The notes under the pieces: generated by a model
The model's database searches: none
What the model saw: the letters and a program-made list of their open reading frames with translations, nothing else
What the model was told of the DNA's origin: nothing
Source: a virus
Taxonomy: Duplodnaviria; Caudoviricetes
Length of the DNA: 63,209 nucleotides
Virus record (IMG/VR): IMGVR_UViG_3300009181_000078
Span: 1-63,209 of that record
Direction: 5' to 3' (one strand)
Shown here: positions 56-57,035 of the stretch, piece by piece
How the letters are laid out: every line of letters begins with the position of its first letter
How positions within the stretch are numbered: the first letter of the stretch is position 1
Made by a program: the position numbers and the translations under genes

Positions 56-1152
56 GCATTACGAACCTTTACATTTGAATCTTCGTAAATATCTTTGTAG
101 TTCTGTCCTCCTTTTGAAAGTGCATTTGAGGTTGAACCCATCATACACTTGCCAATAATCTTACTACCCAAACGCAAACACGTTTTAGTTACACGCCAAT
201 TCTCTTTAATATTTACGGGCTTAGTCCACTTAGCAGACTCATCGTGAGCCAAGAACAATAACTTTTCTCCATCATAGGAGTTATCTTCGGTATTCTTCCA
301 ATCTATTGATGTATCCAATCCATCAATCTCATTGTCGTTAGACTCGTACATATTTTTCTTGGTAATCTTAGATGCCGGTACCCTAAATGCTAATTCAGTC
401 TTTGGCTTATCCATACCATCCATCACGGGTTTGAAAAAGAAAGGTAAACGACTATTGATTGGTACTACCTTATCCGTAAACATTTTTTTAGCATCAGCAC
501 CTGTTTTTGACAAGATACCTATACGTGCGTCACGTGCGAGCGTACCTATATTAATACATTCTGAAGATGACATAAATGAGAATCCCGAACGCCTAATTTT
601 AAGGTATATCATACCAAATGACCTTGGGTCTGCACGACAGGCTTCCCAAAATATCCAATAGATTCTATTAGCTTCACGGAAGTCAGGGTACCCAATGTCA
701 ATACTTGCCCACTGCAAGTACATATAGTGTGAGCCGGTTATGTAGGTTTTAACACCATTGTTCATAAACCAAGTACCCTGCTCCCTGTAGTCAAACTCTT
801 GCTCGATGTAGTCGACCCAACGGGTTTTAAATTCTTTTGGTTTTTCGTTCCACTGAAATATGGATTGTATTTTAAACAACTCTCGGGGTAGTTCGTGACG
901 CTCCCAATATTGTTCAGCTTTAGTGGAGTGTCTTTGAAGACACTTATCAGGGGTAGCAGGAAGAGCAATAAATAACTCTTCTATTTCTACTATCTGCCCT
1001 ATCTGTCCGGTTTTTGAAATTACAATAACATTGTACTGAGGATTGTAGCCATATAGCCACGACCTCACCCTGTTTTTATTAGAGATGACAGCAGCCGGTA
1101 TATGGTTCTCCACTATACGGCATAAACTATTGCTTTGACCTTCTTTCTGCAA
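1..1152 (-). CDS. terL: Terminase large subunit, N-terminal ATPase half (continues at 63154 through the circular junction); start uncertain (TTG 1152 or GTG 1113)
   Basis: Absent from the ORF track because it runs off the window. My translation gives an open frame ...YLKIRRSGFSF (Walker A-like)...LLFLAHDESAKW (Walker B)...GSTSN...LYALFVPMEWN, which joins the ORF at the other end. Confidence 0.9.
   Translation of the reverse strand, partial: MQKEGQSNSLCRIVENHIPAAVISNKNRVRSWLYGYNPQYNVIVISKTGQIGQIVEIEELFIALPATPDKCLQRHSTKAEQYWERHELPRELFKIQSIFQWNEKPKEFKTRWVDYIEQEFDYREQGTWFMNNGVKTYITGSHYMYLQWASIDIGYPDFREANRIYWIFWEACRADPRSFGMIYLKIRRSGFSFMSSSECINIGTLARDARIGILSKTGADAKKMFTDKVVPINSRLPFFFKPVMDGMDKPKTELAFRVPASKITKKNMYESNDNEIDGLDTSIDWKNTEDNSYDGEKLLFLAHDESAKWTKPVNIKENWRVTKTCLRLGSKIIGKCMMGSTSNALSKGGQNYKDIYEDSNVKVRNANGQTKSGLYALFVPMEWN
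928..943. repeat. 16-bp palindrome copy 1 (GTGTCTTTGAAGACAC), inside terL
   Basis: Exact 7-2-7 inverted repeat shared with 8 other sites. Confidence 0.9.
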
Positions 1153-1414
1153 ATCCTTGTTTTGTGTCTGTTTTACTTATTCCTCTATCTACGGAGTCAA
1201 GATTTTCTTTCTCCGCTTCTATTCTACTTAGTATCTCAAACGCATCAAAGATGGCTAACTTCTTAGCTGCTGCTGCGTTCTTCATTTTGTCTGCAGATAC
1301 ATCTGTATCTGAATCGGTATTGATAATATCTTCCTCAGCCACTTTCACAAGATGACTAACGGCTTTGTATCCGGCTTCAATGATTCTTAGCTTTATCTCT
1401 TTAGTATCTCTCAT
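1127..1414 (-). CDS. Probable terminase small subunit
   Basis: Small helical protein directly upstream of and overlapping terL; positional inference. Confidence 0.5.
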   Translation of the reverse strand: MRDTKEIKLRIIEAGYKAVSHLVKVAEEDIINTDSDTDVSADKMKNAAAAKKLAIFDAFEILSRIEAEKENLDSVDRGISKTDTKQGFAERRSKQ

Positions 1415-1887
1415 TACTTAACCTTTAAGAATATTACTTGAACCAATCTTGCAGTTTCTGCCTCTCCAAAGTTATGAAATAAATTCCTCGAGTGTGGAGC
1501 GTCTGAGTTAAAGGCTATCATACGATTAAACTTAGAATACATTGTAATCAACGCTTTCTTGTCTTCATCGTAAACAGTTGTCCCATCATCCTCGGGTGCT
1601 TGCTCGTTTAAGTAAAGCAAACAGGTAATATCACCCATCATTTCATCCGTATGTACAAAATTTGGTTCTTCTTGGTTCAATGGTGACTTCCTGATGAAGT
1701 TTAAATCTACTTTGTAACCAAGAAATAGTTCAGTAACGTATTTGGCAAACTCATCGTTCTTGTCTCGTGGCTGAATGTTTTTGAAAGTGTATTCACCATC
1801 TGCCACGTCTTGAAACCCGTGCAAGTGTATATCTGATACATATGATAATGGGTCTTTAATAATGTTGTCGAATGTAATTAGATTCAT
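1414..1887 (-). CDS. 2-oxoglutarate/Fe(II)-dependent oxygenase
   Basis: HxD (VHTD), LLYLN, GT, FNRM, distal H (PHSR) and R (ARLVQVIF) of the DSBH 2OG-Fe(II) fold. Confidence 0.8.
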   Translation of the reverse strand: MNLITFDNIIKDPLSYVSDIHLHGFQDVADGEYTFKNIQPRDKNDEFAKYVTELFLGYKVDLNFIRKSPLNQEEPNFVHTDEMMGDITCLLYLNEQAPEDDGTTVYDEDKKALITMYSKFNRMIAFNSDAPHSRNLFHNFGEAETARLVQVIFLKVK

Positions 1888-2447
1888 AATTTGATTGTTA
1901 TTTGGTGGTCGTACATCCTATATAACTTTTCGTCATCTACTGTAAACTCATATTCACTATCCGGGGAAAAGCATACCATATCTCCTGCTTTGATACCACG
2001 CTCAAGTAAATACTCGTTAGGATATTTCATTATACCCATTAAGGGCTCTTCTGAGAATGGCTTCTTGATATAGCTTTCTGTAGCGGGAATAGGTTTAACA
2101 AAACAGTATCTATCGTAAGCGTTCCACGTTGAGTCTTGCTTATACATATAGAACTGCTCAGTCTCAATAAAGAATAGGTCGTCTTTAAAAAAAGACTTGC
2201 CACTCTTCTGCCTACCCCTCATATCGTTGTAAAACTTGAATACGTTATGGTGCACAAGTAAAGTGTCACCTTCCCTGATAGGACCTTTGTAACCCAATGG
2301 AAGTTCAACGACCTCTGCAAATCGGTTAGAGAACTTATGGTCCTCCTCAGAAGTGCTGACAATAAAGTCAACACCTCCTATCTCTTTTGTATTGTCGTAC
2401 CTTCTTCCATTCACAGGTTTAGCTATGAAGTAGAATGGAGACTGCAT
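1884..2447 (-). CDS. Tandem GroES-like domain protein
   Basis: Two ~90-aa halves, each with a FxxKP start and an IxxGDxV/L motif; the second ends EYEFTVDDEKLYRM, as in Cpn10. Confidence 0.6.
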   Translation of the reverse strand: MQSPFYFIAKPVNGRRYDNTKEIGGVDFIVSTSEEDHKFSNRFAEVVELPLGYKGPIREGDTLLVHHNVFKFYNDMRGRQKSGKSFFKDDLFFIETEQFYMYKQDSTWNAYDRYCFVKPIPATESYIKKPFSEEPLMGIMKYPNEYLLERGIKAGDMVCFSPDSEYEFTVDDEKLYRMYDHQITIKL

Positions 2448-2674
2448 TAGATGTTTATGTTATATTCAATTGAAATAGGAATGGTGGAGGTGAACTCTTT
2501 CCAAAGCACCACCTCCGCCTTCTCGTTTATGATAAAGATTTGAATAGACTCTTTCTCAGGATTAAGCCTGATAAGGTGAATTTCGTTAGTATCGCCAAGG
2601 ATTTTCTGACCTACAATATAGTGCATAGCACCGCCTTTGTAGTCGGGTCCTATTGATATTTTACGAATATCCAT
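2447..2674 (-). CDS. Hypothetical phage protein
   Basis: Translationally coupled ORF in the late operon. Confidence 0.7.
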   Translation of the reverse strand: MDIRKISIGPDYKGGAMHYIVGQKILGDTNEIHLIRLNPEKESIQIFIINEKAEVVLWKEFTSTIPISIEYNINI

Positions 2675-3075
2675 TATAATTCTACCTCTTCCTCTTTAAC
2701 AAACGTAATACCTGTAGTCCAATCTTCAAGAAATGTAAACAATTCTAAGCCATTGGTGTTAATAACTTCAATAGGCTTAAAGTCAAATTCTTTCTCGTTT
2801 AAAGTCTCAATGTCCTTAGTTAGTTTTTTAACGCCTTCTTTGTTGAATTTATACTCTCCTTTCTCATCTGTTAAAAGGATTCCTTTTTCGTCAACAGCAG
2901 CATTGTCTAAACGTAATTCATCACGTTGCTTATTATAGTCTTCGTGAGCAGGTTTTACCTTCTCGTACAACTTGAATAACTTTTTCTGAACTTTTGTTTC
3001 TTGTTTTCCAATAACATTGTTAATGGAGTTGACCAATGCATTTAGGTCTTTGTACTTCTTTTTTGTTTGTTCCAT
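2674..3075 (-). CDS. Hypothetical protein (charged, helical)
   Basis: ORF preceded by an AAATCAAATCAAATG leader. Confidence 0.7.
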   Translation of the reverse strand: MEQTKKKYKDLNALVNSINNVIGKQETKVQKKLFKLYEKVKPAHEDYNKQRDELRLDNAAVDEKGILLTDEKGEYKFNKEGVKKLTKDIETLNEKEFDFKPIEVINTNGLELFTFLEDWTTGITFVKEEEVEL

Positions 3076-13225: not shown

Positions 13226-13567
13226 TTAAACTAATGTTAAAAGATATAAAGTCTCGTTTACAAGACCAAGCATCTCATCCATAATGTTTTGTAAGTCTGA
13301 AGCATAATTATCCCTTTCTGCTTCGATAGTTGCTTGCATCCCTTTTAAATGGGTAACAGCATCCTGCTTCTTAGACTCAGGGATAGTTATTTCAATACGA
13401 CCACTACGACCAAACAACTTTTCAGTGAATGAGTCAGTCAATTCCAAAATGCCATCATAATAAGCATTAAGTGCCTTATGCTCCGCAAAAGACCTTGTAT
13501 CCAAGTGAGTCAAATGCATTGTATCTCTTGACTGAAACAGGATTCCTAAAAATTTACTTGGTGTCAT
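13226..13567 (-). CDS. Ferritin/Dps-like four-helix protein (DUF5856-like)
   Basis: HLTH...SFAEHKAL...YYD...DSFTE...NIMDE...TLYLLTL resembles phage Dps-like proteins. Confidence 0.7.
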   Translation of the reverse strand: MTPSKFLGILFQSRDTMHLTHLDTRSFAEHKALNAYYDGILELTDSFTEKLFGRSGRIEITIPESKKQDAVTHLKGMQATIEAERDNYASDLQNIMDEMLGLVNETLYLLTLV

Positions 13568-13570
13568 AGT

Positions 13571-13804
13571 TTAGTTTTTTTCTTTTTGAGTTACTTCTCC
13601 CGTTTGCATATTGATTACTGAATCAGCACCGTACTTATCAATAAGTAATTTCTCATTGTTAGTAAAGGCTTCAACAATAGTATGTGCCTGTTTGATTAAC
13701 CCTTGTTTTTGCAATTCAAGTTCGCCAAGACCTATTTTAATCTTAGTGTACTCTGCTGAACCTGTCTTGATAAAGTCTAATTCTTCTGCTGTTAAATTTG
13801 CCAT
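13571..13804 (-). CDS. Hypothetical coiled-coil protein
   Basis: Has its own promoter (13828-13835) and an AATCAAATCAAATG leader. Confidence 0.7.
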   Translation of the reverse strand: MANLTAEELDFIKTGSAEYTKIKIGLGELELQKQGLIKQAHTIVEAFTNNEKLLIDKYGADSVINMQTGEVTQKEKN

Positions 13805-13827
13805 TTGATTTGATTGTTTAATTTATA

Positions 13828-13835
13828 CAAATATA
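13828..13835 (-). promoter_or_regulatory. Bacteroidota sigma-A -7 element TATATTTG
   Basis: Matches TAnnTTTG in an intergenic gap. Confidence 0.65.
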
Positions 13836-13849
13836 GTAAATAAAAATTA

Positions 13850-14305
13850 TCATTTTATGAGATACTTCCTTCCAAACCATATAGCTATGGGAATCAAAAG
13901 CAACCACAAAAACACAAAGTAGTTTGCTTTCTTATCAACTTTCTTCTCAAAGCCTTTAGCCTTAATATCCTTCTTGACCGAAACCGTATTCTCAGACGAT
14001 TGAGATATAGTAGATTTTGAGGAATCTACTATGTGTCTGCGTGTTTTTTTGAGTCTAACTGTCGCATTGAAGTATTGCTTGCCATCAATCACTAATGGTT
14101 TAGCCGTATCAATGGGTACTATCTCAACCTCGTCAATATCCTCTTTAATAGAAATAGCGTTCTGTTGTACAGAAACGCTATCCTTTTTTTCGACAGCAGT
14201 GCTGTCAATATGTGTCTCTACTTGTGTCTTGGTAACCATTACCTTCCTTGAGGCACAAGAGAATAGTAAGAAACTAAGTAATATTAGTGTAAGATGTTTT
14301 GCCAT
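13850..14305 (-). CDS. Lipoprotein, probable unimolecular spanin
   Basis: Lipobox LLFSC at the N-terminus, a C-terminal TM helix, and position directly after the endolysin. Confidence 0.65.
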   Translation of the reverse strand: MAKHLTLILLSFLLFSCASRKVMVTKTQVETHIDSTAVEKKDSVSVQQNAISIKEDIDEVEIVPIDTAKPLVIDGKQYFNATVRLKKTRRHIVDSSKSTISQSSENTVSVKKDIKAKGFEKKVDKKANYFVFLWLLLIPIAIWFGRKYLIK

Positions 14306-14738
14306 TTGATTTGATTGCTTTTAGTTTTTGACCCCTATTTTTACCTTCGCTATAAGATACGTGAACCCAATCAGGATTAGAGTCAGTTCCAAACTCCCAT
14401 ATCAATTGGTCAAACTCTAAATTGTCCTTAATGAAATCATACACCATTTTGTTGGTTACGCCATTTGGAGTACCATCCATATCAATGTCAATTGCCTGAC
14501 CTTTGCAGTGCTGAGATGTAGCTGAACCGCCAATACACTTGTTAAGTTCAGTAGACCTGTATCCACTTGAAATATGAATAGGACATCTAAAGTTATTACG
14601 AATAGGCTCAAAAACCTTTTCCGCTAATTCTTTAAAATTTGCAATATGCTCATCTGTTGGCATATTACTAATACCATTACGTTTTGCTGATTCGCTTCTG
14701 ATTAACTCAGACAAATCTAAATGTTCGCTGATTTTCAT
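14274..14738 (-). CDS. Endolysin, peptidase M15 family
   Basis: ISSGYRS, SQHCKGQAID and WVHVS zinc-peptidase motifs. Confidence 0.9.
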   Translation of the reverse strand: MKISEHLDLSELIRSESAKRNGISNMPTDEHIANFKELAEKVFEPIRNNFRCPIHISSGYRSTELNKCIGGSATSQHCKGQAIDIDMDGTPNGVTNKMVYDFIKDNLEFDQLIWEFGTDSNPDWVHVSYSEGKNRGQKLKAIKSNGKTSYTNIT

Positions 14739-15521: not shown

Positions 15522-15523
15522 TC

Positions 15524-18070: not shown

Positions 18071-18541
18071 ATGAAAATAGCACCAAGTAATTACTTAAAA
18101 TTTTGGCGGGTAATCAGGTATTATATGAAGGCAAAGCACGGTCTGAGCCAAGCAGACCTTGATACCATTCTGTTCCTTTACTCAGAAAGCTACTTTGGGA
18201 AAGAGAAATTTGACGAGTTTAACGAACTCGTAAGTTGGGAGGTAGGAAGATTTGAACGCCTACGAAAAGAAGGATGGATTGAGAAGTTTAGAACACGAAG
18301 CGGTACCGGCAGGGCACTATACCAACTATCCTACAAAGCCAATAACTTAGTGGTAGACATCTATAAAAAACTAAACGGGGAAGAAATCCCCGTTAGTCTA
18401 TCGTCTAACCCTCTATTTTTAAAAAATGTATCTTACAATGATAAGGTTTACCGAAATATGATTGTCAAGATGAATGCGTATCAGCGTGAGAATAAGTATC
18501 GAAGTCCTACACCACAACCACCACGTCACGCTCCTGAATAA
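18071..18541 (+). CDS. Winged-helix (MarR-like) DNA-binding protein
   Basis: GLSQADLDTILFLY...FERLRKEGWIEK...ALYQLSYKA; the only plus-strand gene in the late region. Confidence 0.65.
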   Translation: MKIAPSNYLKFWRVIRYYMKAKHGLSQADLDTILFLYSESYFGKEKFDEFNELVSWEVGRFERLRKEGWIEKFRTRSGTGRALYQLSYKANNLVVDIYKKLNGEEIPVSLSSNPLFLKNVSYNDKVYRNMIVKMNAYQRENKYRSPTPQPPRHAPE

Positions 18542-19293: not shown

Positions 19294-20893
19294 AGGTACG
19301 TGCTATTGTTATGATTGCATTAGTGCTTAAAATAGTTACCGCTACACTGACAGCATTCTGAAGTGCTGACCTTGTAACTTTCAATGGGTCAATAACACCC
19401 ATCTCAATCAAGTCACCCATCTCGCCTGTTTTCAGATTATATCCGTGACCAACAGGAGTGCCTTCTTTATACACATCACTTGGTTTCAATCCTGCGTTAG
19501 CCAAGATTTGTTGGAACGGAGCCATCAATGCATTGCGAACAATACTTAATGCAGCATTATACTCTACACTTTTGGTTTCTTCTCCCAACTCAGCACTCTC
19601 ATCAAGTAATGCTTTGCCGGCACCCGGTAAAATTCCTTCCTCAAGTGCGGAACGAACTGCACAAACTGCATCATCAACTCTATCATACAACTCTTTTTGC
19701 TCAAGGTCAGTCTGACCACCTACGAATATTACACCTATGCCACCCGTAAGTGATGCAATACGCTCTAACAAAAAGTCTTTGTCACCTTTCTTAGTCGCTT
19801 CTTTATGTGCGTCCCACAACTGCTTCACTCTTTCCTCAACCAACTTCTCATCAGCCTTAGCCGCACTGCGAATAATGACTGTCTTGTCCTTGCTAACAAT
19901 AACTTTACCTGCGTGACCCAAGTCACCATAGTTGATATGGCTTAAGTCGTCACCTGTCTTCTCGCTATAGTATGTTGCTCCTACACTAATTGCAATGTCT
20001 TGCATTAACTCGTGCTGTTTGTAGCCAAAGTTTGGCGGAGGCACAGCTACCACTTTAAGGTTCCCCTTAACTGAGTTTGCTGCAAGTGTATTTACCACGT
20101 TAGTGTTGCACGGAGAAATAATCAACAGCTTCTTTCCTTCGGAAATGATTGGTTTCAACACGTTCTCAATTTGCAAAATGTTTGCTATCTCAATATCACA
20201 CACCAAAACCATAGTGTCTTCAAAGACACACTCATCTTTCTTTTGGTCGTTTATAAACATTGAACTCAAATATCCTCTGTCAAATTTTAAACCCTTAGTT
20301 GTCTCTGCATAAGTCTCTGATGTTTGGCTACGCTCAACCGTCACAATACCTGTCTTACCCACATCTTTATAAACTTCTGCAATAATTCGTCCTATCTCTC
20401 TGTCATTGTTAGCTGATAGTGCAGCCACGTCCAATAACATTGCACTGCTGACTTTCTTTGCCTTACGTCTTAACTTATCCACCACCTTATTGCTTATATC
20501 CACCATATGTCTCAGCACTTCAGTCCTGTTCATATCCTCTTTTATATGCTCAAGTCCTCCAAGTACTAATCCTTCTGTCAAAACAATAGCCGTAGTCGTA
20601 CCATCACCTGCAGCGGTAGCTGTTTTGTCTGCCGCCTCTTTCATCATCTTAACCGCAAGGTTCTCCGATGGGTCAATAAGGTCAATCGACTTAGCAACTG
20701 TTACACCATCCTTAGTAACTGTGATGCCGTGCGTGTGATGTGGACTCTCAATGAGTACCGTGTTACCACTTGGTCCGAGCGTTGACTTAACAGCCTTTGA
20801 CATCTTGATGACACCACTGATAAGTTTCTTTCTTCCTTCACTTCCAAACTGCAAATCCTTGGGTGAGTACCCAATTCCTGATGTTTCTACCAT
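19277..20893 (-). CDS. groEL: Chaperonin GroEL (start moved to MVETSG)
   Basis: TLGP, VTKDGVTVAK, AGDGTTTA and GVIDPLKVTR motifs; the promoter at 20921-20928 overlaps the longer start. Confidence 0.97.
   Translation of the reverse strand: MVETSGIGYSPKDLQFGSEGRKKLISGVIKMSKAVKSTLGPSGNTVLIESPHHTHGITVTKDGVTVAKSIDLIDPSENLAVKMMKEAADKTATAAGDGTTTAIVLTEGLVLGGLEHIKEDMNRTEVLRHMVDISNKVVDKLRRKAKKVSSAMLLDVAALSANNDREIGRIIAEVYKDVGKTGIVTVERSQTSETYAETTKGLKFDRGYLSSMFINDQKKDECVFEDTMVLVCDIEIANILQIENVLKPIISEGKKLLIISPCNTNVVNTLAANSVKGNLKVVAVPPPNFGYKQHELMQDIAISVGATYYSEKTGDDLSHINYGDLGHAGKVIVSKDKTVIIRSAAKADEKLVEERVKQLWDAHKEATKKGDKDFLLERIASLTGGIGVIFVGGQTDLEQKELYDRVDDAVCAVRSALEEGILPGAGKALLDESAELGEETKSVEYNAALSIVRNALMAPFQQILANAGLKPSDVYKEGTPVGHGYNLKTGEMGDLIEMGVIDPLKVTRSALQNAVSVAVTILSTNAIITIARTYEQQQ
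20214..20229. repeat. 16-bp palindrome copy 2, inside groEL
   Basis: GTGTCTTCAAAGACAC. Confidence 0.9.
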
Positions 20894-21614: not shown

Positions 21615-21796
21615 AATAATTTTTTTTGAAGTTTGAAATATTTCATAGTAAAGATAATAAATTTTTTAGATAGTAGTAGTGTTTGGGCTATAGGGGGTTT
21701 TACGTGAGCGACCCGTCAGCCGAAAACGACTTTTTTTTTGGTGGTGGGGGTGCTGTTTCCTTTGCCCCGTGTGTAATTTTTGCCGTTTTCCTACAG

Positions 21797-21892
21797 CCAC
21801 TGCCTGCCTGCCTGCCTGCCACTGCCTGCCTGCCTGCCTATGCCGGCACACGTTTGCCGTTCCCTGCCTGCCTTCCCCTGCCATTGCCTGCA
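21797..21892. repeat. (TGCC)n tandem low-complexity repeat
   Basis: CCACTGCCTGCCTGCCTGCCTGCC-ACTGCCTGCCTGCCTGCC and degenerate copies. Confidence 0.9.
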
Positions 21893-21917
21893 TCCCTTTG
21901 CTGTATTGCGTTTCATA

Positions 21918-21933
21918 GTGTCTTTAAAGACAC
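21918..21933. repeat. 16-bp palindrome copy 3 (perfect, GTGTCTTTAAAGACAC)
   Basis: Upstream of the first early promoter. Confidence 0.9.
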
Positions 21934-22096: not shown

Positions 22097-22135
22097 TGAA
22101 AGAATTAATCAATTAATCATCAAAATTTAAACACA

Positions 22136-22771: not shown

Positions 22772-22795
22772 TTTAACCACCTAAAAACTACTACA

Positions 22796-23674
22796 ATGAA
22801 CGGAATCATTTACACAACAACAGGAGAAAGTCGCAGGGGTCAAGTGGCAAGTTACCACGGGAAACCTTCGCCATTGTTTTTGAACAAGAGCAAACACGCT
22901 GTAGACATTGCAGGGCTTAAACCGGCACAACAGCGTACGGCAATCAAGTTTGAGAGCGGTGAGTATGAGTCGAAATTCACTATTGGCTTTGAGGTTGAGA
23001 AAAACCAATTAAGCCGTAATGCGGTGCGTGAGTATGAATTATTTTGTGGGTTTGAGCGTGATGGGTCGTGCGGATACGAAGCGGTTACCCACGTGCTCCC
23101 TTTGTTGCCTGCAGGCGGATGGCGTACAAAAGTTTACGATATGATGCACAAAGCCGAAAAGATTATCGATGATAGGTTTAGCCCTTCGGATAGAAGGTGT
23201 GGCGGTCATATTACGATTGCGTGTGAGGGGATGAGTGGTGATGCCTTGAGAGATGCCATTCGTAAAAATTGCGGTATCGTCCTTGCTTTATTCAAAAAGC
23301 GTGTTACTAACAGCTACTGCCAATATAACAGCAGGATGCAAGATTCAAGTGAGTGTAGCAATTGGCATCACAAGTACCAATTAGCCCTTGTAAAGGGTGG
23401 ATGCCTTGAGTTTAGAGTGCCGTCTCGCTTTCAGTCAGTTAAGCAAATGATGAGGAGATATGAGTTGATGTATGAGATTGTTAACTACAGCGTGGGTACG
23501 CCTAATGCCTCACACGATGGCTTACTTAAGAAAATCAAGCCTATCATTGTTTCAATGTACAATGGCAACGAGGATGATGCCAACGAGGTGTTGAGGTTAT
23601 CAAAGTTATTCAGAGCGTACATTCTGAAAGGTGAGGTGCACACTGACATTGCACAATACGTGCGAAACTATTAA
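22796..23674 (+). CDS. Putative amidoligase (COOH-NH2 ligase, Amidoligase_2-like)
   Basis: IGFEVE, ERDGS, GYEAV, CGGHI, KY and LEFR motifs. Confidence 0.8.
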   Translation: MNGIIYTTTGESRRGQVASYHGKPSPLFLNKSKHAVDIAGLKPAQQRTAIKFESGEYESKFTIGFEVEKNQLSRNAVREYELFCGFERDGSCGYEAVTHVLPLLPAGGWRTKVYDMMHKAEKIIDDRFSPSDRRCGGHITIACEGMSGDALRDAIRKNCGIVLALFKKRVTNSYCQYNSRMQDSSECSNWHHKYQLALVKGGCLEFRVPSRFQSVKQMMRRYELMYEIVNYSVGTPNASHDGLLKKIKPIIVSMYNGNEDDANEVLRLSKLFRAYILKGEVHTDIAQYVRNY

Positions 23675-23686: not shown

Positions 23687-23702
23687 GTGTCTTCAAAGAC
23701 AC
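23687..23702. repeat. 16-bp palindrome copy 4, extended hairpin 23683-23706
   Basis: GGGA-GTGTCTTCAAAGACAC-TTCC directly before ribozyme 1. Confidence 0.9.
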
Positions 23703-23706
23703 TTCC

Positions 23707-23757
23707 GCTGTCGGGGGATGATTATCCTCCCTGATGAGTTCTAAAGAACGAAACAGC
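23707..23757 (+). ncRNA. Type III hammerhead ribozyme 1 (predicted cleavage GUC after 23712)
   Basis: GCUGUC / stem I GGGGGAU-GAUU-AUCCUCC / CUGAUGA / stem II GUUC-UAAA-GAAC / GAAA / CAGC. Confidence 0.93.
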
Positions 23758-23801
23758 ATTTTAAACCGGAGGTTTGAAACCCTCCTTTAAATTTTAATCA
23801 A

Positions 23802-24101: not shown

Positions 24102-24671
24102 ATGAGACAAATTACAAGAGACATTGTGAACGCTTTTCAGGAGATGCGTTCATTACGAATTGACAACAGCCGTACAGATGGGCAAGGCATATGGTTATTC
24201 GACAATAAAATTGTCGAGGTTAGGGAAGATGGAGTATGGATAACCAATGCAGGGTGGAAAAGTAAAACCACAAAGGAGAGACTCAATGGGTTGAGCGGGG
24301 TGCATATCCAACAAGTCAGGGGCAATTGGTTCCTCAATGGCAGGGAGTGGGATGGTAGATGGGTCAACGTGGATGCGTGGAATGGTGGTGCTGAGTCAGT
24401 CCCTGAGGAGAGTGTGCAGGAGCCTGAGTTTGACTTAACGAGTCAATGGATGACAGCCGGATACAGTAAGCCGGTGTATGCGGTGTTTCATTCGTTAACA
24501 GTGGCGAGTCTTGAGCCGGTTGAGGCAATGCTAAACGGGGAAGGGATACCAACAAGAAGAACGGAGTCGGATACCGATGGTGTGTATCGACCTAACTATT
24601 TCTTAGTAGTGCGTCCGGAGGATGTAGATAAGACTGCGAGAATTTTATCTGAGATGTATCTTCTTGCATAG
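24102..24671 (+). CDS. Hypothetical protein
   Basis: ORF track; GW.S.TTKERLN motif. Confidence 0.75.
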   Translation: MRQITRDIVNAFQEMRSLRIDNSRTDGQGIWLFDNKIVEVREDGVWITNAGWKSKTTKERLNGLSGVHIQQVRGNWFLNGREWDGRWVNVDAWNGGAESVPEESVQEPEFDLTSQWMTAGYSKPVYAVFHSLTVASLEPVEAMLNGEGIPTRRTESDTDGVYRPNYFLVVRPEDVDKTARILSEMYLLA

Positions 24672-24680: not shown

Positions 24681-24696
24681 GTGTCTTCAAAGACAC
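24681..24696. repeat. 16-bp palindrome copy 5
   Basis: Followed by a cUUCGg hairpin (24699-24724) and then ribozyme 2. Confidence 0.9.
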
Positions 24697-25556: not shown

Positions 25557-25623
25557 TTCATTATCAGTTCATTAACAAGGGTTCTATGCCTTTATAGGTG
25601 TTGCCCATAAATCAATTTAGCTT

Positions 25624-26742
25624 ATGTGTGTAATCATTATCAAGCAGACAGGGAAGAAAGTTCCTCAGGAGGTTGCAAAGACCTCAGCGAGAATCAATCC
25701 ACACGGATTGGGTATTGTATGGCTCGACACGTTCGAGGTAACGTATCACAAATCAGCAGAGTACAAAGTACTTGACACAGAGAGACCATTCATTGCTCAC
25801 TTTAGATACGCCACCATTGGTGCTATCAACAAAGACAATACGCATCCATTCAGATGCGGGAGCAACAAACAAGAGTGGCTTATGATGAACGGAACTATCA
25901 GAGCACTTGGTAACTTCAAGAAGAGTGACTCAAAAGTATTAGCAGAGAACTTGGGTGAGATACCACGCCACAAATGGAAGAAAGAGTTAGAAAAGTATGA
26001 GTGCAGGTTCGTATCGGTTAACACGCACAGCAGGACATACCAAATCTACAACAAAGAGTTGTGGAGTCAGAGGGATGGCGTTTGGTACAGCAAAGACAAC
26101 GTCCTTGAGGACAATTTAATCGCTGTCTACGGCACGTTAAAGAAAGGGTACAGCAATTATCATCACTACCTCAGTGCCTCCAAATTCATAGCCAAAGGGA
26201 ACACGAAGAGTAAGTATCCGCTTGTCATCAGTGGACTACCTTATTTGATTGAGAAGAGTGGACAAGGTCATCACGTGGAGGTTGACATATTCAAAGTCAG
26301 TTCAGGTGTGTTGGCTCAGTTAGATAGATTGGAGGGTCATCCTGATTGGTACCGGAGGAAGCAGGTTGATGTGACGACAAAGAACGGAGTGCTCAAGTGT
26401 TGGATATACTTCAACATACGTGAGACAGCAGACGGCAAAGAGCATCACAAGACATACACGCAGAAGGCAAAGCCATTGAGTTTTTGGGAGAAGGAAGATG
26501 AGAGAGAGAGCGAAAAGTATCAGAGCATATTTGCTCAGATGGGATATGATGAGCCGAAGAGTGTATGCTTGTTAGACATATTGGACGATGATTGTGAGGA
26601 TTGTGACTTTGACATAGAGAACGAGAAGCCTATCTGTGTCAATTGCTTTCACGACTTGGAGCACGATGCGTTCGCAAATTATCATTGTAGTGGTTGCGAT
26701 GAGTGGTTCACCGAGTCTGAGGTATTACGATTCCAACCTTAG
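25624..26742 (+). CDS. Class II glutamine amidotransferase fused to gamma-glutamylcyclotransferase (GGCT/AIG2-like) and a C-terminal Zn ribbon
   Basis: N-terminal MC, NPHG, HFRYAT, NTHPF, NG; then VYGTLK...LDRLEGHP..Y.R; then CxxC...CxxC. Confidence 0.88.
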   Translation: MCVIIIKQTGKKVPQEVAKTSARINPHGLGIVWLDTFEVTYHKSAEYKVLDTERPFIAHFRYATIGAINKDNTHPFRCGSNKQEWLMMNGTIRALGNFKKSDSKVLAENLGEIPRHKWKKELEKYECRFVSVNTHSRTYQIYNKELWSQRDGVWYSKDNVLEDNLIAVYGTLKKGYSNYHHYLSASKFIAKGNTKSKYPLVISGLPYLIEKSGQGHHVEVDIFKVSSGVLAQLDRLEGHPDWYRRKQVDVTTKNGVLKCWIYFNIRETADGKEHHKTYTQKAKPLSFWEKEDERESEKYQSIFAQMGYDEPKSVCLLDILDDDCEDCDFDIENEKPICVNCFHDLEHDAFANYHCSGCDEWFTESEVLRFQP

Positions 26743-26760: not shown

Positions 26761-26776
26761 GTGTCTTCAAAGACAC
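26761..26776. repeat. 16-bp palindrome copy 6, extended hairpin 26755-26782
   Basis: AGGGTG-palindrome-TGCCCT directly before ribozyme 3. Confidence 0.9.
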
Positions 26777-29517: not shown

Positions 29518-30258
29518 ATGGCAGATATAGATATTATCTTAGCACTACGTGACGACAATCAATACTACAATGGTATTGGTAAGAACTACCTATCTAATTC
29601 AGATATAGGCGTGCTACTTAGCAACCCTCAGGACTTCGGTAAGGAGCGAGAAGACAACAAAGCCTTTATGGATGGCAGATACTTTCATCAATTAATTTTG
29701 GAGCCTGAGAAGGCGAAGGGTATGCCGGCTGTAGATGTGAGTACACGTACTACCAAAGAGTATAAGTTGTTCTGCGAAGAAAATAACCTACCTTTTTGTA
29801 TGTTAAAGAAGGAGCAGGACGAGATTCAAAACCTTGTTAACATTATCAACGGGAATATTGCTTTCTATGATGAGATTTATAAATCAGGTAATCTTTACGA
29901 GACTCCGGCAGTTGGAACGATTCAGGGAATGATATGGAAGGGTAAGGCTGACATTGTCACTGACAATGCGGTGATTGACCTTAAGACTACGAGTGACATT
30001 CATAAGTTCAAGTATAGTGCGAAGTCGTATAACTACGATTCTCAGTGCTATATTTATCAGGAGTTGTTTGGTAAGCCATTGGTGTTCTATGTGATTGACA
30101 AAGGCACCGGAGTACTTGGTATTTTTAGACCAACAGAAGACTTTGTAAAAGGTGGCGAAATCAAAGTGGGCAAAGCGATTGAGGTGTATAATAAATACTT
30201 TAGTGCTAAGCCAACGGATGATATTGTAAACTACTACATTGACGAATATTTATTATAA
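29518..30258 (+). CDS. RecE/DUF3799-like PD-(D/E)XK exonuclease
   Basis: LSNS, G..FH..ILEP, KGKADI, IDLKTT, Y.Y..Q..IY. Confidence 0.85.
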   Translation: MADIDIILALRDDNQYYNGIGKNYLSNSDIGVLLSNPQDFGKEREDNKAFMDGRYFHQLILEPEKAKGMPAVDVSTRTTKEYKLFCEENNLPFCMLKKEQDEIQNLVNIINGNIAFYDEIYKSGNLYETPAVGTIQGMIWKGKADIVTDNAVIDLKTTSDIHKFKYSAKSYNYDSQCYIYQELFGKPLVFYVIDKGTGVLGIFRPTEDFVKGGEIKVGKAIEVYNKYFSAKPTDDIVNYYIDEYLL

Positions 30259-30278: not shown

Positions 30279-30294
30279 GTGTCTTCAAAGACAC
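30279..30294. repeat. 16-bp palindrome copy 7
   Basis: Directly before the tRNA-like RNA. Confidence 0.9.
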
Positions 30295-34042: not shown

Positions 34043-35487
34043 TTGAACGTACTTCAGGATATAGCAACAAAGCAATGTGGGAATACTGCGAGATGCTCAA
34101 GGGGGTTGTGCTTCAGACTAAGACTACCAAATCAGGACGAGGCAATGCTGTTGAGATAAGAGAAGTTCTTAAATACAACACAGAGAAAGAAATTATAAAT
34201 AAAATTGTCGACAGTTGCGAGCATTATAAAAACTTATACGAGATGGAACAAAATAAATTTCAGTTCAGGGATTATCAGGCTGACATTATCCACAAAGGAT
34301 ATGAGATACTTTCAAAGCATAGGTTTCTATACCTTGCTATGGAGGTTCGTACCGGTAAAACACTTACAAGTCTTGGTATAGCAGAGTTATGTGGCATAAA
34401 GAATGTGCTGTTTATCACTAAAAAGAAAGCAATTAGTTCAATTGAAGCCGACTACAGTGCGTTAAAACCAACCTACTCCCTATCTGTCATCAATTATGAA
34501 AGCCTCCACCTCGTTATGAGCGATAAGAAGTGGGATATGGTTATTTGCGATGAGGCTCATAGTATGGGAGCATTCCCTAAACCAAGTCAGAGAAGTATAT
34601 TGGTAAGAGAAGTTTTAAGAAGATGTCAACCATTAGTTATTTTATTATCGGGGACACCAACGCCTGAGTCGTACTCGCAAATGTACCATCAAGTGTATGG
34701 TATTTATTCAAATCCATTTAGAGAGTTTCAAAACTTTTATAGCTTTTGTAAAATATATGTTAAAACAAAACAACGTAAGATTAACGGACTATTCGTTAAT
34801 GATTATAGTGGTGGACTTGATACCATCCTCAAAGAGATGGAGCCGTACACCATTAACTACACACAGCAGGAGGCAGGCTTTATGTCTGAGACCAAAGAAG
34901 AGGTGATGGAGGTGGAGATGAAACCATCAACTTATGCGATGATAAAAAAATTAAAGAAAGAATTAGTGATAGAAGGAAAAGAAGAAATAATTTTGGGAGA
35001 CACTCCGGTTAAGTTAATGATGAAAGTGCATCAAATGTGTAGCGGGACTGTAAAGTTTGAGAGCGGTAATAGTATGATACTTGACTTAAGCAAGGCTGAG
35101 TTTATCAAAGAGCAGTTTAAGGGATGCAAGATTGGAATCTTCTACAAGTTCAAGGAAGAATACAATGCACTCAAGCAGGTATTTGGCGATGACTTAACGG
35201 CTGAGTTAAGTGTCTTTGAAGACACCAATAAAAACATAGCATTACAGATTGTAAGTGGACGTGAAGGAATCAGTCTTAGGCACGCTGAGTATTTGGTTTA
35301 CTACAATATTGACTTCAGTGCTACGAGTTATTGGCAGAGTAAAGACCGAATGACCACAAAGGAACGCCTCGAGAATCAAGTATATTGGATTTTCTCGAAG
35401 GGCGGTATTGAACACGACATCTACAAGGCTGTCACAAAGAAGAAAGACTACACGGTGAATCATTTTAAACAAGATTTTTATTTATGA
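34039..35487 (+). CDS. SF2 (SNF2-like) helicase
   Basis: FRDYQ Q-motif, RTGKT, DEAH, SGTP, GISL, QSKDR. Confidence 0.9.
   Translation: MIERTSGYSNKAMWEYCEMLKGVVLQTKTTKSGRGNAVEIREVLKYNTEKEIINKIVDSCEHYKNLYEMEQNKFQFRDYQADIIHKGYEILSKHRFLYLAMEVRTGKTLTSLGIAELCGIKNVLFITKKKAISSIEADYSALKPTYSLSVINYESLHLVMSDKKWDMVICDEAHSMGAFPKPSQRSILVREVLRRCQPLVILLSGTPTPESYSQMYHQVYGIYSNPFREFQNFYSFCKIYVKTKQRKINGLFVNDYSGGLDTILKEMEPYTINYTQQEAGFMSETKEEVMEVEMKPSTYAMIKKLKKELVIEGKEEIILGDTPVKLMMKVHQMCSGTVKFESGNSMILDLSKAEFIKEQFKGCKIGIFYKFKEEYNALKQVFGDDLTAELSVFEDTNKNIALQIVSGREGISLRHAEYLVYYNIDFSATSYWQSKDRMTTKERLENQVYWIFSKGGIEHDIYKAVTKKKDYTVNHFKQDFYL
35210..35225. repeat. 16-bp palindrome copy 8, inside the helicase
   Basis: GTGTCTTTGAAGACAC. 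Confidence 0.9.
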
Positions 35488-39800: not shown

Positions 39801-42800
39801 CTTCTTTCTCATCAATAACCTTTTCTTCAACCATCTTATCAATGGTCTCAGCGTATTTTAAATTCCCTTCATCGTCAAATACTTTGTTTTCAAACTCATT
39901 AAATCTGTCAGCTAACTCATTTGCTACTGATTGCTCCTCATCTATCCCCTTAAGGATTGAGTCAACATCTTTAGTTACACTTGATTTTTCTTCAAGAGTA
40001 AGTACCGCCTTCCTTTCGCCAAACATATTAACCAACTCTAAATATCTATCAAAAGAAACGTCAGGAATAAGTGTTGGGTTAATAGAGAATAGTCTCTGTA
40101 ATGATAAGTTTAAACCATCGGCAATGCCAATCTTTGTAGCAATGTTGCTTTTTGCAGTTTTTAATTTGTTTTTAGCTTCTTGAATTTTACCTGCATATTC
40201 AGCATTAGCAAAAACTTTAGACATATAATCTACAAAGTTTGATACTGAAACCTCGTTTAGCATATTTACTTTACCAAATCTTGCTACAACGTTGGCAGCT
40301 TGGTTAACTGTAATCTTTCCGGATTTAGCCAACTCTTTAATTTCATTAGCCAAATCTTGGGCAGCATTTCTTGACAAGTCTCTTATCTGCTTGATGACTT
40401 GTAACTTTTCTTGTCTTGAGATATTGGTAATGTCTTTTAAAGCACCTAATACACGACCCATTGAGACAGCACGTCTTATTGGAGCCTGCATTTTATTTCT
40501 ACCCTCACGCTCCATAATCTTCTTCTGAGCATCATTGGCGTTGTCGTAAGCCTCTGAATTACGAATATACGTATCTACATTTCTTACAATCTTAGCGTCT
40601 TCAATATTTCTTGATTTTTGACGAGTAATTAAATCATCAACCTTACCCATCAAAGTATCGTATTCTTTTTGAATAGGAGCAATCTGAGATATAGCATTCA
40701 TCCCTTCAACCACATCTTTTTGGTTAACATTGTTGTCTGCAGATACTCTTTTAATAGCTTCTTGTAATGACACACCTGCATCTACTAAAACCTTAATTGC
40801 TTTAATGATGGTCTTCATTACAGGCAAAGCTATGTTCACACCAAGGTTTTCTTTCTCAAACTTGTTGATGTCTTTGATAACTTGGTCAAGGCTGTTTGAG
40901 ATTTTCTTTAATGTAGTATTATCTTGAGGGTCCAATGCAAGCAAGTCTTCTACTGTTTCTGTAATTCTTTTAGTTTCTTTTTTAGCTTCTTTTTTAGATT
41001 TTTTTTGAGCAGCTTTTTCTGCAGCTTTAGCTTTTGCTTTAGCTTCCTTATTAAATTCCTTTTCTTTAATTTTATTATATTTATCAGCAAGTGCTTGTTT
41101 AGCTTCACCTAATGTATCAAATCCCTCAAATTCATTGCCATCAATATCTTCTATATTAAATGAGAATATCTTATCCTCATCTGTTATTTTAGTTATGGTT
41201 CCAATAGCATCTTCATCTGCATTAGTTGCCTCTACTGTTATTGATGATAAATATGGAGTTATTCTTCCACTATCAGATTCTCTTTCATCCTCTTCGTAAG
41301 TTAGTGCGTTATCTCTTGTGAAAGTAGGAGTTTTCACATCTTTAATAGTTATAGGCTCAAATACTTCTTCTTCAATTACAGGTGCAACTTGTTGTGTATT
41401 ATCTCTTTGTTGTAATCCCTCAGGACGCATAGTAATATCTCCTCTATTCTCTTCATCAAATTGAGAAAACTCTTCGGGTAATAATCCTATTTTTTGTTCA
41501 GCAAAAAGTCCTTCTTGATATATTTTATCTACAATATCCTTTGCACCTTTTTCATTTCCTTGCTCACGTAATTTTCTTGCCTCCTCTCTTAATTTATCAA
41601 TATTTTCATTAACACCTGAAAAGTTTACATAAGAATTTTGACCACGTGTCTCCGTAGTCATTGCTCTTCTTGCAAGAGGAGAGAACATACGTGCGTGAAT
41701 ATTCCAAGCATTCTCTTCCCCCTTAGGACCAAATGAATTACCTAACTCTGCGTGACCATAAAAATCGTGAATAGCACGAAACACATCGTTAACTAATAAT
41801 GTATTTCCTTTAGCATCTTTGAACCCTGAATCTCTAAGTAAAGGATTTTTTTGTCTTTGTTTTTCAGTTATAGGATTAGCACCAAATCCTGCTTCAGTAG
41901 AAAATATTTTTATACGATTGTTGTTTCTTAAGTCATCAATCATCTCCTGAGAGTTATTGTATGGCTCTTCGTTATCTATTTCTATCTCAAATCCTGAGTC
42001 AACAAAGTCTTTATATTGGTCTAATGTTTCTTTAGCCATTGCATCGTAAGCTGCACGAACCTCAGGATTAGTTGGGTCGTCCTTCATTGATGCATAAGCA
42101 TCAGCTATTCGCTTGGCTCTTGTTTCATCAAGGGTTCTTGTTCCGGCAAAACTTGGTCTTTCGGTACCGAAAACTCTTTGATAATATCTATTCGCAACCT
42201 CCTTAGCTTTCGTGAGTGGCTTATTAAAGAGTCTGTTTCCTGCGATAGGTCCGGGTTTTGTTGTTGTTGATTGTCCATTTTCTTGAGTTTGATTTATTGT
42301 TTCTTGCGTCCCTTGAGGAGTGATTGTTTCTTGGGTCCCTGTGGCAACGACTTGAGGTTGGGCGTTTCCTTCGACCACTTCTTGCAATCCCAATTGGGGT
42401 TGTTGGCTGCGTAGCAAGCCTTCATTTGTGCTTTGTTTTTGAATGGCATCTTGTTCGGTTTTTAAAGTTTCTAATTCTGTTTGTAGTTTTTTTCTTTCAG
42501 TATCCTCTATAGTAACAGTATTTTCAGGAGCCAATGTAGTCTCTAACTCAGCAATTCTATCTGTTCTTTTTGCAGTAACCTCAGGAGCCTCCGCTTCAAC
42601 AGTTGCAACTTTTGCTTCCTCTTGAATTTGATTCTCTTGAATATCTTTTATTTGGGTTCTAATAGCAGCAGCTTTATCCTTGCCTGTTTGCGTCTTATTT
42701 CCTTCTAATTTTTGTAAATCTTTTTCTAAATCAGTAATAGCATTAAGACTTGGCTCATTCAAATCAGGGTTAGCTTTTCTAACATCTTCTTTGATTGAAT

Positions 42801-56139: not shown

Positions 56140-56153
56140 TAGTTCTTTTTTTA

Positions 56154-56200
56154 CAAATATACATAAAAAAAAAGAGGGCACAATAAGTGCCCCCTCTTTC
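56154..56200 (-). terminator. Terminator (56165-56200) followed by -7 element TATATTTG (56154-56161)
   Basis: GAGGGGGCAC-TTATT-GTGCCCTC-T9 on the minus strand. Confidence 0.75.
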
Positions 56201-56227
56201 TAATCATCAATCAACAATCAGTATTTA

Positions 56228-56971
56228 CTAACCTAAAGTTGCTTCTAACATCTTTAGAGAGTCTATACCTTCATCGCTCTGTAAGAAGTGGGCGACCATT
56301 TCATAGGGGTCTTCTCCAAACGGAACTGATAACATCTTCTTTTTGTTGGTGGCAGTATTAAACCATACCTCTTTCTCACCATTTCTTAATATCAATAATT
56401 TGTTCTCAAAGAATGTACGAACCTTAGCTTGAAACTTCAATTCAGGGTCATTCAATATGTTTAAGAACTCTCTTGGGTCTCTTTTAGCAAATACCAATAT
56501 ATCACGCTTTAATTCAGCAGTAGATATGGTAGATGGGTCTTTACCAAACATTACTCTCGTAAGAGTCTCTAATTGGTCTGTTGTAAGCTGACGTGCTTCA
56601 ACTAATGCTTCAATCTCTAAATCCAAATCTTGAACCTCTTCTGCTGCATCCTTCTCCTTATCTACCTCTACAAAAATGTTGCCATTTAAGGGATGGTAAT
56701 GTAAGAACTGCTGCAATACAGGGTTTGTTCTTGGAACTCTTAAAAAGCCATCTTCAAAAATGATAGGCTCAATAATAAAGTTTCCGTCTTGTTCGTCCTC
56801 AAATGGGGACTTTTGGTTTGTGCAATATCTTAATGCACGATTCATATTGTTCTTCTCGTCAAACCACATTAGTGGAAAACGAGGGTGATTCCTTGACGCT
56901 AACGTGTAAGATAGCGGGTTTCCTATTTTCAACTTATAGACTTTGTCTACAGATGTTATACTTTTTGCCAT
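56228..56971 (-). CDS. Conserved hypothetical protein downstream of the capsid gene
   Basis: ORF track. Confidence 0.75.
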   Translation of the reverse strand: MAKSITSVDKVYKLKIGNPLSYTLASRNHPRFPLMWFDEKNNMNRALRYCTNQKSPFEDEQDGNFIIEPIIFEDGFLRVPRTNPVLQQFLHYHPLNGNIFVEVDKEKDAAEEVQDLDLEIEALVEARQLTTDQLETLTRVMFGKDPSTISTAELKRDILVFAKRDPREFLNILNDPELKFQAKVRTFFENKLLILRNGEKEVWFNTATNKKKMLSVPFGEDPYEMVAHFLQSDEGIDSLKMLEATLG

Positions 56972-57002
56972 TTTGTATTTAATTTAATTTGATTTAATTT
57001 TT

Positions 57003-57035
57003 AAAAAAGGAGAGTGTCTTTGAAGACACCCTCCC
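57003..57035 (-). terminator. Capsid-gene terminator whose stem core is 16-bp palindrome copy 9 (57014-57029)
   Basis: Minus strand GGGAGG-GTGTCTTCAAAGACAC-TCTCC-TTTTTT. Confidence 0.85.

Follow-up and report, generated by a model that had tools for sequence, protein, structure and literature searches.

The 63,209-nucleotide (nt) window analysed here, the whole of the virus record IMGVR_UViG_3300009181_000078 (IMG/VR; Duplodnaviria, Caudoviricetes), carries nine exact copies of the 16-base-pair (bp) palindrome GTGTCTTNNAAGACAC, a sequence that is the hallmark of a clade of ~60-kilobase (kb) phages of Bacteroidota. The explanation that we consider best, and to which we give about even chances, is that the 16-mer represents the apical part of an RNA stem-loop that punctuates phage transcripts, and that a factor reads the sequence of its stem. 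The nine copies had been described in an earlier note on this DNA. Their coordinates were reproduced exactly, no match to GTGTCTTNNAAGACAC appeared in 100 dinucleotide-preserving shuffles of the window, and allowing up to two mismatches added no further site, so that the copies are all-or-none. The contexts proposed for them (terL, groEL, helicase, three ribozymes, a tRNA-like RNA and the capsid terminator) were also upheld. The copies, including a degenerate tenth one, are located as follows (ORF, open reading frame):

928..943, − strand: copy in terL (N-terminal half, phrog_6681), codons K-C-L-Q-R-H, centre CA on the sense strand
20214..20229, − strand: copy in the Cpn60/GroEL gene, codons C-V-F-E-D-T
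21918..21933, no strand assigned: symmetric TA-centred copy in the divergent region separating the − and + gene blocks
23687..23702, + strand: copy with its stem lengthened by flanking bases, 12 nt past the stop of ORF 22796..23674
24681..24696, + strand: copy 9 nt past the stop of ORF 24102..24671
25579..25606 (core 25586-25601, ATGCCTTTATAGGTGT), + strand: degenerate tenth copy with outer stem GGGU/GCCC, upstream of the GATase/GGACT gene
26761..26776, + strand: copy 18 nt past the stop of ORF 25624..26742
30279..30294, + strand: copy 20 nt past the stop of the exonuclease gene 29518..30258
35210..35225, + strand: copy in the SNF2/ResIII helicase gene, codons S-V-F-E-D-T
57014-57029 (terminator 57003..57035), − strand: terminator-core copy past the capsid gene, stem 57035-57008, U-run to 57003

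The architecture is that of a 7+2+7 palindrome, with the dyad symmetry expected of an operator for a dimeric regulator. Eight copies are one and the same 16-mer in either orientation, with CA (20214, 23687, 24681, 26761 and 30279) or TG (928, 35210 and 57014) as the centre on the + strand, and the ninth (21918) is fully symmetric, centred on TA, as are some copies in relatives. The 14 specified positions are unchanged over more than 200 clade loci. As had been claimed before, the copies that follow genes all read TTCAAA on the sense strand (5/5). Sense-strand centres in the clade numbered 84 CA vs 12 TG, in a crude count without deduplication and with approximate ORF calls; since the count is crude and one locus (L018) deviates, having mostly TG or CG, no functional conclusion is drawn from the centre.

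Several observations support the proposal that the intergenic copies act as sense-strand RNA hairpins. The capsid terminator (57003-57035) consists of a 28-nt hairpin (−19.3 kcal/mol, z −5.1) followed by six T, the arrangement of an intrinsic terminator. When this 3′ site was sampled in relatives blind to the motif (80 loci, of which 8 were dropped for cut ends and 72 were usable), 23 had the exact motif, 6 a version differing from it at one to three positions, and 43 lacked it altogether; the printed folds of the 49 sites without an exact copy all show a hairpin there, mostly followed by a U-run. The six near-variants contain nine substitutions, seven of which lead to G·U on the sense strand, none to A·C and two to a U·U mismatch.

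An equally blind sample was taken of the 5′ untranslated region (5′-UTR) of the GATase/GGACT gene, where 78 of 80 loci were retained (2 were dropped for incomplete upstream sequence) and gave, with the window as row 1, an alignment of 79 rows (A2) at 48-98% protein identity. In this alignment 96.2% of the cells are paired vs 80.3% in shuffles (a value reached by 0/500), compensatory change appears in 10 of the 11 pairs, and 109 cells are changed on both sides vs 27.8 expected. The covariation score is 0.415, vs 0.177 in shuffles (0/500 again reach it) and 0.044-0.096 in slid controls, which are 30-65% paired. Compensatory pairs thus exceed the controls, as in a structured RNA. On the sense strand there are 60 G·U cells vs 3 A·C, or 27 vs 3 once the dominant pair is removed; the degenerate copy of the window itself (minimum free energy −11.2 kcal/mol) has its G·U pairs on the + strand. 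As for the sequence around the 16-mer, at least four extra sense-strand pairs were present at 11 of 51 copies in five genomes, vs 2% at random positions, and all 11 adjoin a ribozyme or form the capsid terminator, with folds of −16 to −19 kcal/mol. In the window, 23680-23713 folds with −16.2 kcal/mol (z −3.9), and copy 26761, whose extended stem 26755-26782 includes G·U pairs, with −18.7 kcal/mol (z −5.7). Contiguous stem extension is missing at most copies; copies of the 5′-UTR type, whose stem is broken by an internal loop, escape this measure.

Related phages use other versions of the same element. Their apex TTNNAA is constant (mostly TTYRAA), whereas the 5-bp stem varies between genomes, by changes that preserve pairing, and is near-uniform within each of them, so that every lineage could be said to have its own dialect. 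Among these dialects, with 8-15 copies per genome, are GTCTC/GAGAC, GTCTG/CAGAC, GTCCG/CGGAC, GAGAG/CTCTC and GAGGG/CCCTC around TT..AA, each seen in one of five complete genomes, as well as GTGTCG/CGACAC. The canonical 16-mer is absent from MW202828.1, which by its capsid protein (69% identity) is the closest named relative, and in its place there are 14 exact copies of GTGTCGTTAACGACAC, all in the early block; eight of them are intergenic, five of these eight begin 3 nt past a stop and seven end 16-23 nt ahead of a start codon. At 27 loci the GGACT gene has a perfect palindrome on either side, and at 26 of these the two stems are identical, where shuffling gave a mean of 20.6 and at most 24. 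Genome G006 also has two hybrid copies (35100-35115 and 40160-40175) with one canonical arm and one dialect arm, which may be intermediates of a dialect switch.

In the early region of the window the hairpins are coupled to predicted self-cleaving and tRNA-like RNAs:

23705..23759, + strand: type III hammerhead 1, predicted cleavage after 23712; Rfam 44.7 bits, E 2.5e-7; own model 73.5 bits
23768..23785, + strand: second hairpin GGAGG-TTTGAAAC-CCTCC after ribozyme 1, ~17 nt ahead of the next start codon
24722..24776, + strand: type III hammerhead 2, predicted cleavage after 24729; Rfam 39.9 bits; own model 71.4 bits
24785..24803, + strand: second hairpin, GAAGG/CCTTC, after ribozyme 2, ~17 nt ahead of the next start codon
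26780..26834, + strand: type III hammerhead 3, GUA triplet, predicted cleavage after 26787; Rfam 34.1 bits, E 2.4e-4; own model 73 bits
30300..30396 (approximate), + strand: tRNA-like RNA, T-arm GGTTCGATTCC, 5′ end 5 nt past copy 30279

Hammerheads 1-3 start 2, 25 and 3 nt after copies 23687, 24681 and 26761, respectively. A scan of the window with Rfam at gathering thresholds found nothing. Aligned with one another and with relatives (A1), the candidates show the invariant RF00008 core CUGANGA ... GAAA, three stems of which the third is open, and the NUH triplets GUC/GUC/GUA, and the differences in stems I and II among the ten A1 sequences are read, by eye and without a count, as compensatory. 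A covariance model of our own, built partly from the three ribozymes of the window, identified 20 hammerheads in 10 complete genomes, and 16 of these sit 0-25 nt past a copy in the dialect of their genome. The second hairpins after ribozymes 1 and 2 share the apex TTTGAA, and GGAGG/CCTCC vs GAAGG/CCTTC constitutes a compensatory change. The tRNA-like RNA has a good T-arm and acceptor stem around a long, odd middle part, and was called neither by ARAGORN nor by Rfam; in acceptor and T-arm it aligns with a 93-nt tRNA-Val at the equivalent place in the relative L057 (10169-10261), whose start also lies 5 nt past a copy. Two further observations concern the ribozymes. The 3′ strand of stem III of hammerhead 2 (ACGG) could pair with the 5′ strand of hammerhead 3 (CCGU), which in principle would allow the 2-kb RNA between both predicted cuts to be joined again or closed into a circle. 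Moreover, one hammerhead-like match (35.4 bits, own model) was detected in elemoE (NC_055854.1, L323 18097-18153, − strand), a cultured phage without the repeated palindrome.

The copies inside genes are informative in a different manner. Suppression of synonymous variation, which the earlier note had asked for at all three of them, was evident for the helicase, partial for terL and absent for groEL. In relatives sampled blind to the motif, the helicase copy was found in 18 of 20 (4 of 24 loci were dropped as gapped or partial), with a third-position conservation of 0.92 in the motif vs 0.71 in the flanks; the terL copy was found in 45 of 80 (0.87 vs 0.58), and the groEL copy in 10 of 80 (0.65 vs 0.65), so the latter is probably incidental or young. 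The helicase copy is present in 5/5 complete clade genomes, and its codons change with the dialect. Canonical genomes read AGT GTC TTT GAA GAC AC. (SVFEDT), G006 reads AGT CTC TTT GAA GAG ACC (SLFEET) and G007 reads AGT CTG TTC CAA CAG ACT (SLFQQT), both exactly in their own dialect, and G008 reads AGT CCG TTT GAA CGT ACT (SPFERT), one synonymous change off its own. In terL of G006 the own dialect likewise appears, with ESLQRD replacing KCLQRH. Since these in-gene copies are kept and matched to the dialect of the genome despite the change in amino acids, selection operates on the nucleic-acid sequence within genes, in concert with the remainder of the genome. In other relatives the genes for the giant virion protein and for a small protein contain copies, which are read in the VSSKT frame.

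Some side observations relate to the same genes. A perfect palindrome with the TTCAAA apex and another stem, GTACATTCAAATGTAC, occurs at 38814-38829 inside the gene for a 2460-aa virion protein, and relatives have a true copy inside the homologous giant virion protein gene. In some relatives (L294-L298 and L300) ~170-690 additional bases split the helicase reading frame around residue 70 and shift it, through an intron, an inserted small gene or a division of the gene in two; these insertions lie away from the motif.

The distribution of the 16-mer is that of a phage element. An exact scan of IMG/VR gave at least 119 loci, and 114 of the 119 listed encode relatives of proteins of the window (40-98% identity). 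Five whole relative records contain 8-13 copies each, with 0 for a reversed-pattern control, and no such repeat occurs in the more distant named relatives Panino and elemoE. Bacterial genomes yielded scattered single matches (at least 120 loci); among the matches listed none had array-like spacing, and the sole multi-copy loci were two phage-looking contigs of metagenome-assembled genomes (MAGs; Cytophagales and Flavobacteriaceae). Because the 16-mer is not multi-copy in the bacterial chromosomes listed, it is a phage motif rather than a motif of host chromosomes, and the host factor that the earlier note entertained as a binder becomes unlikely. Gene calls in relatives are crude, and related sequences are non-independent observations. 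Searches with terL and with the capsid protein each gave at least 600 matches.

The relatives of the capsid protein are podophages of Flavobacterium, Cellulophaga and Maribacter. In the window terL runs over both record ends; its pieces (1-1152 and 62057-63208, both − strand) are one base out of frame on simple joining of the ends, whereas relatives have a continuous terL of ~750-760 aa (G002 13320-15608; MW202828.1 29272-31518), and the frame break is probably an artefact at the record ends. The promoter consensus of Bacteroidota (TTTG, a gap of 17-23 nt, and TAnnTTTG) had 10 matches in the window vs 4.9 expected. Two sites delimit the early region:

22066-22096, + strand: match to the Bacteroidota promoter consensus, 40 nt ahead of the first + strand gene
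30812-30838, + strand: intrinsic-terminator-like hairpin followed by T7, which would close the first early operon

We read the ~22.1-30.8 kb segment as one early operon transcribed by the host polymerase, because there is one host-type promoter match and one terminator-like site, and no phage RNA polymerase was found. Four copies of the palindrome, the tRNA-like RNA and all three ribozymes fall within it. Of the words sampled from 21700-31500, a fraction of 0.40 was present in one RNA run. Genomes differ in the genes of their early block, which is mosaic; the whole module is common to motif-bearing genomes and missing from Panino and elemoE. Within it, the second early protein (22796-23674, + strand) is similar to clusters in which 12% of the members are annotated as Amidoligase_2, a weak lead, and the product of 25624-26742 (+ strand) is a fusion of GATase and GGACT (gamma-glutamyl cyclotransferase), which suggests a peptide- or metabolite-modifying pair. 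In many relatives the hairpin that precedes the GGACT gene (A2) has, ~30 nt ahead of it, a TAnnTTTG box, the −7 element of Bacteroidota; if it is a promoter element, that hairpin would be near the 5′ end of the transcript. A weak CRISPR-DR31 match at 22306-22340 (+ strand; 21.8 bits, E 0.63) is probably due to chance.

Taken together, the data suggest the following scheme. The stem-loop would comprise a 6-bp stem and a 4-nt loop with the apex UUYRAA. In the early operon it stands 9-20 nt past stop codons and 2-25 nt ahead of a hammerhead or of the tRNA-like RNA, so that once the ribozyme (or presumably RNase P) has cut, the upstream mRNA would end in the hairpin plus ~5-10 nt, or ~33 nt in the case of hammerhead 2. 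At other places the stem-loop is the core of the capsid terminator, or a 5′-UTR element 16-25 nt ahead of a start codon. A sequence-specific reader of the stem is strongly implied, since lineage dialects are followed even inside helicase and terL; such a factor, most likely encoded by the phage, would account for one dialect per genome, for lineage differences that keep pairing and for the dialect-matching copies in both genes. We infer from these patterns a protective or regulatory role for the hairpin, as well as the existence and the nature of its reader. The RNA-hairpin half of the earlier proposal, a site for a dimeric DNA-binding protein that may also act as an RNA hairpin, is sustained by covariation, by the excess of G·U and by the coupling to ribozymes, tRNA and terminator, and the half concerning dimeric binding to duplex DNA gained no such support.

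A number of observations weigh against a stem-loop read as RNA. Regarding processing, all three hammerheads of the window fall below the RF00008 gathering score of 48.5 bits, four of the 20 hammerheads in complete genomes have no preceding copy, MW202828 combines its 14 copies with no hammerheads and no stem extension, and ribozyme activity, cleavage and RNAs ending in a 3′ hairpin are predictions from sequence. Regarding the mode of recognition, invariance at 14 positions is more what one would expect of a protein reading duplex DNA, and unusual for one that reads an RNA stem in A-form; the G·U asymmetry cannot separate RNA from a single-stranded non-template DNA strand, since it fits both alike; and the in-gene copies are without an outer stem and lie in translated RNA. 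Regarding the reader itself, no hairpin-specific RNA-binding protein or nuclease was identified among the candidates, and the degenerate copies (25586 in the window, and the capsid site in 43 of 72 relatives) retain the hairpin and lose the dialect, from which it follows that a structural role at those sites needs no reader.

That the element functions primarily at the DNA level we consider unlikely on the whole. In that case the palindrome, with its GTGTCTT half-sites and free centre, would be the site of a dimeric and highly specific phage protein, either an operator or roadblock regulator, a genome organiser, or a PD-(D/E)XK nuclease or nickase of restriction-like type that supplies recombination-dependent replication. 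RNA hairpins would then have arisen as a by-product, which evolution went on to exploit at terminators and at the junctions with ribozymes. The invariance of both arms in copies that are all-or-none, the symmetric and largely free centre, the in-gene copies that lie in both orientations without outer stems and yet are conserved and follow the dialect, and the hybrid copies of G006, which look as though half-sites evolve separately, all favour a DNA reader. The phage encodes a MarR-like winged-helix protein, a DnaA-domain-IV helix-turn-helix (HTH) protein, and VRR-NUC and PDDEXK_14 nucleases beside a Sak single-strand annealing protein (SSAP) and an exonuclease, and a dimeric DNA-binding regulator is what the authors who described comparable 17-bp dyads in Cluster O mycobacteriophages favour in the available text of their paper (PMC4351075). 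However, a DNA site leaves unexplained the 0-25 nt coupling to the 5′ ends of hammerheads and tRNA, the sense-strand G·U excess (60 vs 3; 7 vs 0) and the covarying outer stems. Processing contexts, G·U asymmetry and degenerate copies that preserve pairing rather than half-site sequence favour an RNA reader instead. Nor are the positions those of operators overlapping or adjoining promoters, given that just one copy is near a promoter match: copy 21918 lies 132 nt upstream of 22066-22096, with 24 nt separating it from the start of the divergent ORF 21666..21893 (− strand), and the others are at gene ends or in genes.

The candidate binders put forward in the earlier note, namely the winged HTH protein (18071), the DnaA-C-like protein (28512) and the first early protein (22136), gained no support. 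The model of ORF 18071..18541 is a MarR-like winged helix (pLDDT 84, Foldseek E 4e-4), a fold typical of dimers on palindromes; against this candidate, the protein is also encoded by relatives that lack the motif (30-36% identity), and five genomes with one and the same dialect differ in its putative recognition helix. Alignments of the winged HTH and DnaA-C-like proteins revealed no residue pattern tracking the dialects. The first early protein had no fold match (best Foldseek E 0.89), and its structural look-alikes are viral clusters without names. Phyletic profiling for a single binder singled out none, the whole early module co-occurring with the motif. Among 33 Pfam-scanned and 13 PHROGs-scanned proteins of ~75 ORFs there was no ParB, integrase, transposase, HUH transposase or tyrosine recombinase; within that set, a parS-like site has no ParB-family partner.

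The stem-loop with a reader can be extended into a bolder proposal, which we regard as doubtful: a private 'address code' of each lineage, in which a fast-evolving phage protein would recognise only its own 16-nt stem-loop, as RNA or as RNA and DNA. The phage would place this label where cistrons meet and also within essential genes, at the price of altered amino acids. Transcripts or genome bearing the label would thereby be singled out to be stabilised, processed or protected, while between co-infecting relatives it would form a barrier or a signal of kinship.

It appears improbable that there is no dedicated reader at all and that the hairpin is purely structural, its uniformity within genomes resulting from short-patch gene conversion or annealing (Sak/exonuclease) or from spread at cassette boundaries, for which T4 PeSL elements and integron attC arrays offer a comparison. 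Such an origin would suit the persistence of the hairpin without dialect at two orthologous sites, the mosaic early block with its variable gene content, the Sak SSAP, exonuclease and two nucleases that the phage encodes, and the copies that flank single small genes. Nevertheless, the helicase and terL copies sit at orthologous codons and are kept over 62-73% protein identity, where a dialect switch costs amino-acid replacements, and an unselected in-gene palindrome decays, as that of groEL (10/80) illustrates. Conversion would moreover have 2-6 bases of flanking identity only, and no recombinase of integron or RAYT type was present among the scanned proteins.

A hairpin promoter similar to those of phage N4, or a terminator, for a phage or virion RNA polymerase of early genes is very improbable. 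The copies are exact, mostly in the same orientation and upstream of early-block genes, and the virion polymerase of phi14:2 works on single-stranded DNA, with early promoters that are not known according to the accessible part of that report (bioRxiv 10.1101/2020.03.07.982082). Even so, the operon is headed by a promoter match of host type, copies keep a tight distance from the preceding stop while that to the next start ranges from 10 to 400 nt, the U-run at the capsid copy resembles an ordinary terminator, and ribozymes would be pointless if each gene had its own promoter. The specific version with a crAss-like virion RNA polymerase was dropped, as the giant proteins lack DFDxD and comparison with Pfam, PHROGs and PDB sequences gave no match to an RNA polymerase.

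Decoys that mimic a host RNA such as a CRISPR repeat hairpin, soak up a host protein and have dialects that track hosts are hardly credible: the 16-nt hairpin is similar in size and shape to Cas6-type repeat hairpins, and solitary phage-borne repeat units are known from the text available (PMC10651486), but conserved positions at gene boundaries and in genes are not expected of them, and among the at least 120 bacterial loci none of those listed showed the spacing of a repeat array, the multi-copy ones being the two phage-like MAG contigs.

Multi-copy dyad repeats of phages have been reported and left unexplained, and the purpose of phage hammerheads that flank genes has not been worked out. 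In hundreds of uncultivated 60-kb phages of Bacteroidota, dyad repeat and hammerhead form one module. Its comparative record, with covariation, strand asymmetry, dialects and coding sequences altered to keep the label, is unusually clear, and makes its possible meaning testable at several levels, as the shaping of mRNA ends by a virus that depends on host RNA polymerase, in a phylum with unusual translation signals, and as the co-evolution of a protein with a stem code of 5 bp. Pairs of reader and hairpin could be used as orthogonal RNA or DNA tags, provided that there is a specific reader. In the literature covered, which was incomplete and without supplementary files, no phage hairpin-ribozyme module, lineage dialects or in-gene re-coding was described.

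The closest precedent is the 17-bp dyad repeat TGTTCGGNNNCCGAACA of Cluster O mycobacteriophages, with more than 30 copies per genome and an unexplained function. As far as its available text goes, that element resembles ours in being a 7+N+7 palindrome with many exact copies that are denser in one transcribed block, some of them in short intergenic gaps and about one third in coding regions, with a central asymmetry that tracks the direction of transcription. It differs in its unrelated sequence, host phylum and higher copy number (>30), and the same portion of the paper, which mentions stoperators as a mycobacteriophage comparison, does not report coupling to ribozymes or tRNAs, covariation, dialects or protein-recoding in-gene copies (PMC4351075). 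With respect to the ribozymes, Perreault et al. (2011) found hammerheads flanking prophage genes and proposed processing to single-gene or operon-length mRNAs (PMC3088659). There, as here, several ribozymes punctuate long phage transcripts, although a conserved preceding hairpin is not described in the part of the article accessible to us, whereas 16 of 20 hammerheads in our set follow a hairpin of their own dialect and the tRNA-like RNA replaces the ribozyme once.

Other resemblances are functional. Like the clade element, several phage sites are many, near-identical, short, mostly intergenic and served by one phage regulator, among them Cluster A stoperators and the conserved inverted repeats of phiC31, which in temperate phages are bound as DNA by a known repressor, the stoperators being asymmetric; in our case no integrase was present among the scanned proteins and the intergenic evidence points to RNA. 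The DNA uptake sequences of Neisseriaceae have lineage dialects, in-gene copies in tolerated peptides and inverted pairs that act as terminators, and the CRISPR repeat hairpin co-evolves with Cas6. Both share with the 16-mer the short exact repeat in a lineage-specific version, and differ in that the present phages have single palindromes in a virus genome, with no competence or CRISPR machinery. The early region of phage T7 has RNase III processing sites, and histone mRNA has a 3′ stem-loop bound by the stem-loop-binding protein SLBP, this hairpin being 16 nt long with 6 bp and a 4-nt loop and read by a protein. In these systems an endonucleolytic cut just past a hairpin leaves a 3′-terminal stem-loop, as proposed here, though in the phage the RNA itself or RNase P would make the cut, in place of RNase III or U7, and the systems are not homologous. 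Finally, the succession of hairpin, ribozyme and second hairpin resembles the synthetic ribozyme-plus-hairpin insulators that have been constructed, of which the module might be a natural counterpart, a proposal that can be tested.

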